Shown here in pieces: positions 10,977 to 16,900 of a stretch of 32,000 bases of DNA. The notes under the pieces were generated by a model. The model was not told where the DNA came from. It made no database searches and was given only the letters and a program-made list of their open reading frames with translations. Origin of the DNA: Halalkalibacterium halodurans (lineage in GTDB: Bacteria > Bacillota > Bacilli > Bacillales > Bacillaceae_D); NCBI RefSeq assembly GCF_004376175.1, contig NZ_SNUY01000007.1, positions 30,001 to 62,000 of the forward strand. The letters are read 5' to 3'. Position numbers and translations under genes: made by a program. The number at the start of each line of letters is the position of its first letter. Position 1 is the stretch's first letter.

Positions 10977-13900
10977 CTATTCGTTACATTCCCGTGCCTT
11001 GCTCTTCTTCCCCTTCTTATCTTTCTTTGCCTTTTTTGAACATTCACTTCTGTTCAATTGGACGGGGACATGGAAATCATCCACGTTGATATGACCCCAA
11101 CCACCGGTCGCATGATCCACGATTAAAATATAACTTTCAGTACCTATATAATCAGAAGCATCCCAGTGCACCCTGTAATAAGCTTCATTGTTTCCTCCTG
11201 TTGCTTTTTTCAACATTTTTCCGTCCGATTCCCGAACGAGAGCGACATAGAGATCATATATATTGTCTCCTCCTGAAACTAAAAAGTTGATCTGGCCGTT
11301 CCCACCAAGCGTGAAAGTCTCGGAACGCATCGCCCCCGTTTGTGAATCATCGCCTGTCGTTAAGCTCCACAGGTGGTAGGTTCCTACATGATTAAATGGC
11401 CCTCCCCACCCCCAATCGGTTCGATCCGTCACATCATCAGGACTGAACGCATCACCGTAAAGGATCGTCCAACCTTCCAGCCCCTTTTCAAAGCTAGGAT
11501 TTGTAAGGTTACCAGTTGGAGGAGGATCGACGACAACAATATCAGTACTAGCTTCATGCCCTCCATCCCTCGTTTTTGCCGTAATCGAAACAGACCCTGA
11601 TGCATGAGCTGTTACTCGCCCGTTCGTAACAGTCGCCACCGAAGGATCACTTGAGGTCCAAATGACATCCTTATTGGTTGCTTGCTGCGGGGAAACAATA
11701 GGTGTGACGTATTGTTCGGTTCCCGCCATCATCTCCTCTTTTTCACGGTTCAACTCAAGACCTGTGACCGATACGTCTTGATAGGCCGAATTCATTTCCC
11801 ACACCTTCATAGACTTCACGATGACGGAATCTTCATGGTCATTGGCCCACAACTGGACACCCGTTGCGTCTGGCCTTGTCGGATAGGCTCTCGTTGTAAT
11901 GTTTTGCAGACCGTTCAAGTACGCTTCAATCATCGAGCGGTCGAGGAAGACCCTCATGTTCATCTGCTCTCCGCCAAGATCAACCTGACCTCCTTGATAC
12001 CATCCTTCCAAGTCACGATTCAAGCTCGAGCTTGTGCGATCAACCCAAAACTCCTTCGCGCTTTTTTTATAATAAAGGATCGTTTCCTCTTCCCCGTCAG
12101 GCGTCCTCCTGACACTTAGACCGGCCTCATTCGCTTGCCCGTGATCGAGCTCTAGCTCAATTTCGAGCATATCTCCTTGAATTTGAGAAAGAATCTCGTT
12201 CGCTTCAGCAAATGGCGTATCTTCCGTTATTTCTACTAATAGATCGCCTCGAAGCGATTCCACTTCCTCAATTGGTTCCATCCCGAGACGATTATCGTCA
12301 CGGAGGTAGACATGAATCGGTAGACCAAAATTGTGAGCATAACCTGAATCATAATCAATTAACGCCGTTCGCCTTCCTTGGGCAATGCTATAAATAACCG
12401 TTCGCCCATCTGGTGTGACAAAGCCTGCTGGTCCTGTAAAATGATCACCAAAATCAAGTAATTTCGGCTCTTCATCGTCTGGAATGAACCTTGCCTTTTC
12501 CTTATCCCATGTTCCGATCCAATACCACGTATAGCGAGATTGGAATTGCTCTTCTTCCATTTTCGCTGGGTTAATAAGCAAAATATGCTTTCCGCTATCC
12601 CCTAGTGGTAGAAAGATCGGTAGCTCCCACACACGTCCAGTCTTCGGGTATTTTTCGAAATCGCCAACGTATAAGTATCCGCGGTACTCCCACTCTTCAA
12701 AGCTCGAATCCTCAGTCGAATAGACAAGCGCCGTTCCCCCTACTGGGTCGCCCTGTTCGGTTTCCACTCCTGACGTAATGAGCATGAACCACGTATCGCC
12801 ATCTTTAAACAGAAACGGATCACGAAACTCTCCTAAAATGCCTTGACCAGGCTCTTGGTCTAAAAGAACCTCAGGATGCTTTTCCCAGCGATTTAAATCG
12901 AGGTCACCATCTTTGACAAACGTGCTTCGTGCAATGTTAATCCTCTGATTCGGCGTACGACGGTCATCACCCGCGGTATAAAAGATGACTGGGTTTCCAT
13001 CATCATCAATGACCGCATCTCCGGCCCATGCTCCATCTGGATCTACATCGTGCCTCCCTGGAATGACAGCATCACGGGCATCTCGCCAATGAATCATATC
13101 ATCACTTACTAAATGCCCCCAGCGAATATGGTTCCAGTAAGGGCCACGAGGGTTGCTCTGATAAAACACGTGGTATTGTCCATTAAAATAAAACGGACCA
13201 CCCGGCTCATTTTGCCAGTGAACAGGCGGAGCTGCATGATATTGCGGACGGTGCGGATCATTTGCCAAAATACTACGATCGATGCGCATATTAGGGGTCG
13301 GCAAGTTCCCACCGACTTGGTCGAGATACCGCTCATATTCTTGTTGAACCTCCTCAGGAGATAGAGCCCGACCTCTTAGCTTCACCTCATCTAAAAGGCC
13401 GCTAAACATGTTGAGCGTGAAGCCGTACAACCACATTCCTTGGTTGTTCTTAGCGATTTTTAACGGCGTTGCGCTCGGCTTAATCAACGTCCCTTTCGGA
13501 AAATCACGCGAGGCTACCTTTTCTCCATTTAAATAAAGAACTACTTCCCCTGTCGAGCTTCGATAAGTAGCTGTAATGTACGACCATTCTTCAAGCGGAA
13601 GGACAACATCTGACATCACTTCAAACCAATCATCGCCTGTCCCAAACTGCAAGCCCCACGTGCCGTGACGGTAATGCCCGAAAATGAAGCCCTCCTTCTT
13701 CTCTCGATCATGCTGGTTCATAATCGCAGACAAACGTCCCTCATCCCCGTGCTCGAAATTTCTTGGTGCCACCCAAGCCTCAAGCGTGATCTCGTCTTCA
13801 GGAACGGGGATATGATGAGGCGGACTCTCGATCCATGTGGAGTAACCGTCAAACAACAGCGTCCCGTTTTCAATCCCATCATTTCTCCACATCGGATCAC

Positions 13901-16900
13901 GCGGTGGTTGATACTTCCCTTCATTTAAAAAATAATGGATTCGCTGCTTTCTTCCGGTTACTTGCTCTTTCGTATGTTTTCCTTCTTGTTCATCAAAGGA
14001 CCAATGCCCGAGCAACTCCCGCGAAAATGTGGAGTTATATACATTGAAATCATCCACGTTAATGTGACCCCAAGGCCCTGTCGCATCATCTACAATCTTG
14101 ATGTACACTTCCTCGCCTACATAGGCCGACGCATCCCAGAATACCCGTTGATATGTCTCTGAATTACGCCCGGTCGCTCTAAATAATTCTTCCCCATCGG
14201 CTACCCGAACGAGAGCGACATAGAGGTTTTCAATGTCATCACCCCCACCGATTAAAAAGTCGATCCCGCCGTTCCCGCTTAACACAAACGGACTTGAGTG
14301 CAATTCTCCCGTTGCTTCGTCTCCAGCTGCTTTAAATCCCCAAAGATGATAGTCACCCGCTTGATCAAATGTGCCGCCATCGCTCCAATGCGTGTCTCGC
14401 ACTAGGCTTTCCGGACCGTAGGCATCACCACTAACAACCTCCCAGCCGCGAATCCGATCAGGATGAAGAGCGGTATACTCAAAATCATGGTTGAAAATAC
14501 CTGGCTCCACATTTCCATGCAATGAAGCGGTCGGCGGAACGTTGACATCGTCTAGGTTCAGGTGCCCTTCTGTCGACTGATCGACAATTTCAATGTAATA
14601 CACGTCGTCCACATAAGCAGAGACATCCCAATGAACCCGGCGGTATGTGTCATTGCCGTGCCCCGTCTCTTTCATCACAACCTCCCCATCCTCGGCTCGA
14701 ACGAGGGCTACGTATAAGTTTTCAATGTCTTCATCTCCACCGATCAGAAAATCGATCTGCCCATCTCCCCCTAATGTAAACGTTTGGGAGCGCATCACAC
14801 CGACCTTGGAATCATCACCTCTTCCACCCCATATGTGCCACAGATTATTTTGCTTAAACGGCTGTTTGTTCCAATAATCAGCTTCGTCGGTAACCGCTCC
14901 ATCGCTAAAGGCGTCTCCACGAACAACCGTCCAGCCCGTTAAATCACCTGTTTCAAAGCTAGGATTCTCCATTTCATAGGGTCCTTCTTTTTTTTCTTGA
15001 TTGAACACTTGAATATCATCAAGATTGATATGGCCGAACCCGCCAGAATGCCTATCGACCACTTTTAAAAACATCGCTTCACCTAAATAATCAGAAGCGT
15101 CCCAGGTCACCTGTTGATATCGCTCATCATTGTGACCGGTTGCCCGGAACAATTCTTTTCCATCGGACGCCCTAACTAAAGCGACGTAGAGCCGCTCTTC
15201 ATCTTCTCCACCGCCTATGCGAAAACGAATCGTTCCATCTCCGCCTAGCTTAAATAAGCTAGAGGTCATCATCCCTGCACGAACATCCGCCCGTTCTTCG
15301 TTCGCACCAGCAAATCCCCACAAATGGTAGCTGCCTTGATGACCAAAACGACCACCCCAGTACTCCTTCTGGTCCGTAATGACTCCTTCAAAGGCGCTTC
15401 CAAATGTCGTCCAGCCCGTGAGATCCCCCGTTTCAAAATCTGGATTTTCAATGTCATTCGGGAGCTCTGCTACGTTGATTTCACTCGGATCAATCCCGAA
15501 ACTACGCTTAAATTCCTGCGGATAACTTGGGATGAATTCTGCCTGAGATAAAGGATAGATTTCGAGATTTTTCACATAAATTTCGCCTTCATCGCCAAAC
15601 AATTCGACTCCCAAGCTGTCATGATCGGGAAAAATTTGCTCGGTAAACACAACCTCGCCCTCATTGAAAAACACTTCAACCGAGGACCGGTCAACCAATA
15701 AGTGAACTTTGACCGTTTCTTCTTCATGGAAAGGAGCCAGATGCTTTGCAGCAAAGTCTGGATGGAAGTGGACCTCGCCTGATTGTGTTCGATCCACATA
15801 CACATTGTTTTCCGTTCGATCGATGCCAACAGCTGTCCATTCCCCCTCACCTTTTCTAACATGAAATCCTAGTTCGTTCGCCGTTGTTTTCGTCCAATCG
15901 ATTTCAGCGATGATTTCGAGCGTGTCCCCTTCAGCCTCAGCAAGGAGCTCATTGGAACTAGAAACGCTCTGATCAGACCAACTTCGCTTTTTCCCGCGAA
16001 GGCTTTGAAGTTCTTTAACAGGAGTTTGTGTTAACACAAGTTCGTCGTCTACTTCCTTTAATGATAGCTCCCTTGGGACGGTCATTGCACTCCGCCAAGG
16101 ATCGGTTGGAGTCTCTCCACCATAATGAGGGGTGCTCATCCAGCCAAGTAACAGTAGACGATCGTCTGGGGCATTGCTCCACGTCACCCCTGCATACATG
16201 TCGGGCCCAAAGTCGAGCCAGCGTATTTCCTCTTCATCCGGGGTAAAATGCGCACCGTCAAAATCGCCGATAAAATAGCCCATCCCTTGGCTCCCCGTTG
16301 GACCGTTGGCTACACTTGTGATCAGTACCCATTTATGCTCGTTTCCTTGTTTGTTTACTGGGAGTTTTATAAGGTCCGTACATTCCCAAATCCCAAGGTC
16401 CCCATTGATTTCTGGCGTCTCAAATCGGCCTTCCTTCGTCCATTCCCTTAGATCAGGAGAAGAATAGAAATCGGCTTGCTTCCCCGTGGCAATGACCATC
16501 CGCCATTCATTTGATTCCTCATGCCAAAACACCTTCGGATCGCGGAAAACACCGTCACCTCCGTTGCTTACTTTTGCTTCGTCGGGCATCTCAATGACAG
16601 GATTTCCTTCGTACGTTTCCCACGTCCGTCCTTTATCATTGCTGTAGGCGAGACCCACCGTTTGATGGTCCTGACCAAACTCATACGTGAAAATCGCAAC
16701 TAAAACCGGCGTTTCACCTGATTGAAAGCCGCTCGTATTTTTCTCATCAACGACGGCACTTCCAGACCAAATAAAGCCATGTTCATCAGGGTATAACGCA
16801 ATCGGTTGGTGCTCCCAGTTGACGAGGTCGGTACTGATCGCATGCCCCCAATACATCGGTCCCCATACCGTTTCTGTCGGATTATGCTGGTAAAATAAGT

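Follow-up and report, generated by a model that had tools for sequence, protein, structure and literature searches.

Four CBM38-type modules in a two-headed GH32 fructanase of Halalkalibacterium halodurans

Family 38 of carbohydrate-binding modules (CBMs) was founded on a piece of a cycloinulo-oligosaccharide fructanotransferase (CFTase). Formerly called X39, it comprises residues 32-389 of the glycoside hydrolase family 32 (GH32) CFTase AAG47946.1 of Paenibacillus macerans, and this 358-residue fragment is predicted to form two beta-sandwich domains (PMC10076258). The same article describes it as binding levan and inulin with low micromolar affinity, and both this article and PMC4835578 cite Lee et al. 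2004 for the "inulin-binding module" of CFTases. In Defluviitalea raffinosedens, one protein has been annotated by dbCAN as CBM38(44-189)+CBM38(221-367)+CBM38(409-527)+GH32(808-1121)+CBM38(1313-1448) (PMC7355431). Here we analyse a 32,000-nt stretch of the Halalkalibacterium halodurans genome (contig NZ_SNUY01000007.1, positions 30,001 to 62,000; "the window") and, within it, a gene for a giant protein with two GH32 units and four copies of one module, M1 to M4. We conclude that the four modules almost certainly belong to CBM38.

All four modules lie in one open reading frame (ORF) of the minus strand (Table 1). They are 150-160 residues long, share 44-52% pairwise identity over about 150 aligned residues and have 42 invariant columns in their alignment. 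A six-frame scan of the whole window with a profile hidden Markov model (HMM) of the module found exactly four copies (nt 15000-15458, 14535-14975, 14034-14501 and 11061-11510; E = 1e-58 to 6e-65). This HMM includes the four window modules themselves; evidence independent of it is provided by the repeats of CFTases, which BLASTP matches at E = 1e-12 to 1e-51. M1-M3 stand in tandem between the first GH32 unit and a Laminin_G_3 domain, and M4 follows a Big_2 domain near the C-terminus. An initial annotation, made from the letters of the window, had described a four-copy module of about 150 residues in just this arrangement, and the single ORF, the identities, the six-frame scan and the Pfam coordinates all agree with it. 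The five sequence blocks it listed as shared hold at the level of a consensus. Two of them, LYVALVR..DG and GH[IL]N[VL]DD, are found literally in all four copies; the other three are not. Block 1, [ET]NP[DS]FE.G.L.GWT, fails in M3, where it has diverged, and in M4, which has a one-residue deletion. YHLW reads WHIW in M2, and M2 also lacks the W or F before GH.

The module HMM was used on CFTases in a form built from 52 sequences that included no CFTase. In the 1333-residue CFTase QDY82655.1 of P. polymyxa (P0406) it matched residues 75-242 (E = 8e-42), 260-395 (2e-23) and 1168-1326 (2e-64), and in the 1503-residue CFTase BAA24360.1/O52973 of Bacillus circulans residues 57-224, 242-409, 423-558 and 1331-1489. 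BLASTP gave the same connection: M1-M4 align with the two N-terminal repeats of the CFTase at 29-38% identity (E = 1e-12 to 1e-34) and with its C-terminal repeat at 46-56% (E = 1e-43 to 1e-51). M1 matches the C-terminal repeat at 53% identity (E = 2e-51) and the repeats of the CBM38 fragment at E = 1e-25 and 3e-17. The matches of M2 to the CFTase repeats have E = 3e-43, 6e-34 and 5e-24 and those of M3 E = 6e-48, 5e-27 and 2e-12, and M4 is 56% identical to the C-terminal repeat (E = 6e-48).

The founding fragment itself can be placed on this scheme. In the P. polymyxa CFTases P0345 and P0406, both of 1333 residues, signal cleavage would follow A31 and the mature protein would start at S32; residues 389 and 390 are S and F. 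The two N-terminal copies of the module fill residues 32-389 exactly. The CFTase of P. macerans, according to Kim and Choi in 2001, reportedly has 1333 residues as well and is processed at Ser389/Phe390. Because S32 and S389/F390 of the P. polymyxa enzyme match the published boundaries, the fragment that defines CBM38 corresponds to two tandem copies of our module. Among the sequence records concerned, AAL82574.1/Q8RLU3 falls in the 90%-identity cluster of P0406, and AAG47946.1 is not among the members listed of the 80-member P. polymyxa CFTase cluster.

Other evidence points to the same family. Homology to the founding fragment is found through its near-identical stand-ins P0345 and P0406, the module forms an independent beta-sandwich unit of about 150 residues in the AlphaFold2 model of M4, and it is attached to fructan-active GH32 enzymes, two GH32 units being present in one polypeptide. 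Four related proteins (P0100, P0328, P0331 and P0339) show, with the module HMM, the unit length and layout of the D. raffinosedens protein annotated by dbCAN. The CBM38 units of the P. macerans, P. polymyxa and B. circulans CFTases are, like the window modules, homologous beta-sandwiches of about 150 residues.

The likeness extends from the modules to the whole architecture. CFTases, like the window protein, carry tandem copies at the N-terminus and one copy after the GH32 C-domain, and in both a LamG domain precedes GH32. Over M2-M3-LamG-GH32 the window protein runs collinear with residues 76-1145 of the proxy, a P. polymyxa CFTase (BLASTP, 40% identity over 1108 residues), and this segment also aligns at 55% identity with stand-alone enzymes of 1325 residues such as P0108. 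Because of these collinear alignments, we read the window protein, from its sequence, as an exo-inulinase-like GH32 joined to an entire CFTase-type unit (CBM38 repeats, LamG, GH32, Big_2, CBM38). The extra exo-inulinase-like GH32 fused in front distinguishes it from CFTases. Moreover, Big_2 stands between GH32 and M4, whereas in CFTases the C-terminal copy follows the GH32 C-domain directly. The two catalytic units have different solved relatives: those closest to the first are the exo-inulinases 8I12 (E = 2e-104) and 1Y4W (3e-100), and for the second only distant ones exist, the best being 7VCO (E = 6.5e-53). P0108 had been considered as a CFTase and was rejected, being a 55%-identical relative of the C-terminal part of the window protein; the record names of the CFTase-sized representatives (P0108, P0109, P0113 and others) do not include a CFTase name.

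The initial annotation had taken the modules for beta-sandwiches, and the AlphaFold2 model of M4, built on the 52-sequence alignment, supports this: it has ten beta-strands, with pLDDT 97.1 and pTM 0.91. In Foldseek the model falls among jelly-roll CBMs and MAM-like domains. Its best neighbours in the PDB are the CBM16 structure 2ZEX, the K3 adhesin domain of Kgp, the porphyran-binding CBM 8XMZ, CBM61 and MAM (TM about 0.5-0.64, identity below 20%); for the jelly-roll CBMs and 8XMZ, E is 8e-6 to 4e-4 and TM 0.46-0.64. The fold class is ordinary, yet no member of the module family itself has a solved structure.

The family is large. When 1.84 billion cluster representatives were searched exhaustively with a profile of the module, 7,304 proteins matched at E<=1e-3, of which 1,620 reached E<=1e-30, counted as representatives of 50%-identity clusters. 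Commonly 2-10 copies occur per protein. GH32 is present in 41 of the 148 best-scoring representatives, and many others are nearly pure arrays of the module. Among 923 unique instances, F9, W16, G61, S65, F68, D134 and D146 (M4 numbering) are near-universal (96-99%), followed by G21, G125, E10 and N6 (87-93%). LYVALVR and the GHIN part of GHINxDD remain below 75% in the same set. In the AlphaFold2 model LYVALVR forms a core beta-strand (residues 89-95 of M4), and GHINVDD a loop and the last strand (143-149).

Both motifs separate the copies of CFTases into two types. The first N-terminal copy lacks LYVALVR and the His and Asn of GHIN and reads SDWGVIFAD instead of GGWGHINVDD; in the second, LYVALVR is degenerate (AYVALYD) and the other block is NEANIAVD, without GH. 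In P0345 and P0406 the N-terminal copies are much more diverged than the C-terminal one, with bit scores of 130 (residues 77-240) and 72 (262-391) against 202 (1170-1325). As far as sequence goes, LYVALVR is the mark of one subfamily rather than of the family at large. All four copies in the window belong to the canonical C-terminal type, with LYVALVR and GHINxDD, whereas the CFTase fragment tested for binding consists of two diverged N-terminal copies.

These data also bear on the conserved binding or metal site that had been suspected in the two motifs. For LYVALVR such a site is rejected, the motif being a core strand and specific to a subfamily; for GHINxDD it is partly plausible, and there only for the terminal Asp. 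Jelly-roll CBMs of this kind commonly bind a structural calcium through acidic residues on their first and last strands. By analogy, the acidic residues of FE in the first strand and of DD in the last may form a structural calcium site here.

What might the four modules do? As a whole, the best explanation, and in our opinion a likely one, is that they tether a secreted two-headed enzyme to polymeric fructan. Each module would bind beta-fructan chains (inulin and/or levan) non-catalytically, and the presence of four copies would give multivalent avidity and a longer residence of both catalytic heads on the polymer. The fructan could stem from the environment or be synthesised on site by two fructansucrases of family GH68 whose genes are adjacent. 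Fructan made locally by GH68 enzymes in bacilli is commonly levan. The fructose and fructo-oligosaccharides set free would enter the cell through the adjacent ABC system, and a cytoplasmic GH32 and a PfkB kinase would process them there. For M1-M4 themselves we infer fructan binding, linkage preference and avidity from sequence. The earlier functional guess, that of a fructan-binding beta-sandwich distinct from CBM66, is reasonable on the same grounds.

Several points weigh against this interpretation or against the family assignment beneath it. The link to the founding AAG47946.1 runs through the P. polymyxa and B. circulans CFTases as stand-ins. The dbCAN label reaches the modules by likeness to the D. 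raffinosedens protein. The CFTase fragment tested consists of diverged N-terminal repeats and M1-M4 are nearer to the C-terminal type; binding and specificity of M1-M4 are thus extrapolated, since they resemble the C-terminal copy and not the assayed fragment. Finally, GH116-like and Peptidase_M19-like proteins also carry diverged relatives of the module, so not every member of the family need bind fructan.

It is conceivable, though we think it rather unlikely, that the canonical CBM38 subfamily has another specificity (e.g. for levan) or an accessory role in the catalytic unit, and that the copies in GH116 and M19 proteins bind ligands other than fructan. The subfamily could differ in specificity because the binding of CBM38 was defined on the diverged N-terminal pair, and levan is suggested by the adjacent GH68 genes. 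If this were true, CBM38 would be a broader, multi-specific superfamily than CAZy describes.

Related proteins offer several contexts of this kind. Near-pure arrays of 6-9 module copies exist. In GH116-like proteins, diverged copies are found as insertions between the N-terminal region and the catalytic one, others precede Peptidase_M19-like domains, and the module also accompanies CBM9_1 together with LTD and Big_2. Such carriers outside GH32 enzymes include P0170, P0225 and P0238; P0185, P0198 and P0220; P0229; and P0106, P0123 and P0125.

A more specific rival keeps the CBM38 fold and denies it the tethering function. M1-M3 would then be spacers or anchors to the cell surface or matrix, and M4 an accessory of the catalytic unit that influences which products form, e.g. 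by transfructosylation or cyclisation as against hydrolysis. The canonical C-terminal copy is indeed kept after the GH32 C-domain in all CFTase-type enzymes examined, and the published binding data (PMC10076258) concern only the N-terminal pair of the CFTase. The Lys-rich tail of the window protein could mediate association with the wall, and the superfamily occurs also in GH116, M19 and pure-array contexts. However, the family-wide invariant positions are kept in all four window copies, and M1-M4 resemble each other and the CFTase repeats more closely than they do the GH116 and M19 copies. Tandem CBM arrays on secreted glycosidases normally serve substrate targeting. We therefore regard this rival as improbable and retain the tethering of the enzyme to fructan.

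Far less probable still is that the modules represent a new, undescribed CBM family, as the initial annotation had considered. At first sight, library searches could be read in this way. Isolated modules gave no match to Pfam at E<=10 except for the first 35 residues of M1, which matched CBM_4_9 with 15.2 bits (gathering cut-off 25.9), and no NCBIfam model matched the modules. PDB sequence searches with two module profiles, of 4 and of 52 sequences, returned no full-length chain, only first-strand and chance matches, and the best structural neighbours reach TM of about 0.5-0.64 with less than 20% identity. Against a new family stand the homology to named CFTase repeats, among them the pair that defines CBM38, and the fact that dbCAN already labels such a unit and architecture CBM38 (PMC7355431). 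Since the modules are homologous to a known family with a known ligand, the idea of a new family is refuted. What remains true of it is that the family is poorly described, since neither Pfam nor NCBIfam models it and no structure close to it has been solved.

The first-strand matches deserve a comment of their own. In the PDB profile search the motif FExG..GW aligned to CBM22 (4XUP), CBM61 (2XOM) and the porphyran-binding 8XMZ. Membership in CBM_4_9 (PF02018), CBM22, CBM61 or CBM16 was considered and rejected: the match is confined to the first strand and below the cut-off, and the likeness is one of fold only. The jelly-roll CBMs of families 4, 16, 22 and 61 (2ZEX, 2XOM, 4XUP) and 8XMZ thus share with M1-M4 the general fold and the first-strand motif. 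Their ligands, in contrast, are glucans, xylans, galactans and porphyran, not fructans, and their identity to the modules is below 20%.

CBM66, known from the levanase SacC of Bacillus subtilis, is another family for comparison. It is a non-catalytic fructan-binding beta-sandwich on GH32 enzymes and can co-occur with our module. However, it is a domain of the PF06439 type with no detectable sequence similarity to M1-M4. The module profiles gave no match to 4AZZ, 4B1L or 4B1M at E<=10, and as a positive control the PF06439-type domain of P0367 matched 4AZZ at E = 6e-43. The Pfam scan found no PF06439 match on the modules, and CBM66 was absent from the top 50 Foldseek matches of the M4 model. 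In P0367-P0373 both domains stand side by side. That M1-M4 are levan-end-binding modules of the CBM66 type, as in SacC, is practically out of the question: the GH32 enzyme class is shared and the size is similar, but sequence, fold and co-occurrence with a separate PF06439-type domain rule it out, in accordance with the initial annotation.

The modules are, in short, members of the already catalogued CBM38, an ordinary finding and not a new family. It brings little new for biology at large, its practical value lying in annotation. CBM38 is under-served: Pfam offers no model, a solved structure is lacking and binding has been the subject of a single, old study. As neither Pfam nor NCBIfam models this family of more than 7,000 representatives, its carriers are labelled "hypothetical" or "GH32 C-terminal domain-containing". 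The confident M4 model and the conservation map (the seven near-universal positions F9 to D146) provide targets for mutagenesis, and the fusion of an exo-GH32 with a CFTase-type unit in an alkaliphile is a reasonable candidate for fructan biotechnology.

The protein is already present in public databases: it is identical over 2047 of 2047 residues to E2L07_03750 (P0275) of Halalkalibacterium halodurans, starting from residue 19 of the ORF. Literature searches, including those combining halodurans, GH32 and levan, found nothing specific to this enzyme. The mechanical ORF (10977..17174, minus strand, 2065 codons) begins at an upstream GTG, and the annotated start is Met19 of the ORF (nt 17120; protein MKRGSPNRW...). 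We place the gene as in Table 1 because P0275 begins at this Met. The 18-codon GTG extension upstream of it (17121-17174, minus strand) is probably untranslated, since a typical signal peptide begins at the annotated Met. This Sec signal peptide, recognised by eye, is a probable one. At the other end, two cysteines flank the Lys-rich tail LNRSECSKKAKKDKKGKKSKARECNE, for which the whole-protein scans gave no Pfam or NCBIfam family match; as a speculation, the tail might associate with the cell wall, which is acidic in this alkaliphile. The same scans detected no domain in residues 560-1090 and 1885-2040.

Table 1. Features of the giant fructanase gene and of the surrounding locus. Domain calls are from Pfam and NCBIfam scans of the whole protein; residues are numbered in the 2065-aa ORF.
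Feature	Position in window (nt)	Residues	Strand	Basis
Gene for 2047-aa multidomain fructanase, predicted secreted	10977..17120		(-)	ORF and database identity
Probable Sec signal peptide (MKRGSPNRWLIVLLILLMLSQPLLDVRA, followed by SG)	17037..17120		(-)	Basic N-region, hydrophobic core, VRA motif
GH32 unit 1 (N- and C-domains), exo-inulinase-like	15555..16967	70-540	(-)	Pfam Glyco_hydro_32N/32C
M1, CBM38 module	14997..15461	572-726	(-)	Alignment, HMM, BLASTP
M2, CBM38 module, motif variants	14529..14981	732-882	(-)	Alignment, HMM, BLASTP
M3, CBM38 module, diverged first strand	14031..14510	889-1048	(-)	Alignment, HMM, BLASTP
Laminin_G_3 (LamG-like jelly roll), before second GH32	13344..13850	1109-1277	(-)	PF13385, E = 4e-22
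GH32 unit 2, CFTase-like	11844..13262	~1305-1777	(-)	Pfam GH32N/32C and PDB matches
Big_2 Ig-like spacer domain	11547..11768	1803-1876	(-)	PF02368, E = 9e-11
M4, CBM38 module, copy used for modelling	11058..11516	1887-2039	(-)	Alignment, HMM, BLASTP, AlphaFold2
Lys-rich C-terminal tail, 26 residues (LNRSECSKKAKKDKKGKKSKARECNE)	10980..11057		(-)	Read from translation
Two tandem GH68 fructansucrases (levansucrase/inulosucrase)	5744-7051, 7014-8402		(+)	
LamG-GH32 paralogue, N-terminal membrane anchor (MKRYLIILTIIVIAIVLWFI)	8480-10939		(+)	
LamG-GH32 paralogue without anchor	17278-19560		(-)	
Solute-binding protein	19734-21338		(-)	
DUF624	21368-21979		(-)	
Two ABC permeases	22007-23942		(-)	
Plain GH32	23987-25510		(-)	
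PfkB kinase	25514-26506		(-)	
LacI regulator	26574-27581		(-)	

Together, the genes around the giant one form a coherent locus of fructan synthesis and utilisation. Both LamG-GH32 paralogues that flank it are devoid of CBM38. The one on its far side from the GH68 genes has no signal sequence and may be cytoplasmic.

Two adjacent fructansucrases are unusual for a Bacillus-type locus. The apparent 38-nt overlap of the GH68 genes arises because the second ORF is opened at an upstream GTG; its likelier start is an internal Met (MRKQSM...).

Unrelated to the fructan locus is a 257-aa protein (4089-4862, minus strand) with two MerR-type helix-turn-helix stretches (Pfam MerR and MerR_1, two each), adjoined by a MacB-type ABC exporter (2135-4055, plus strand).

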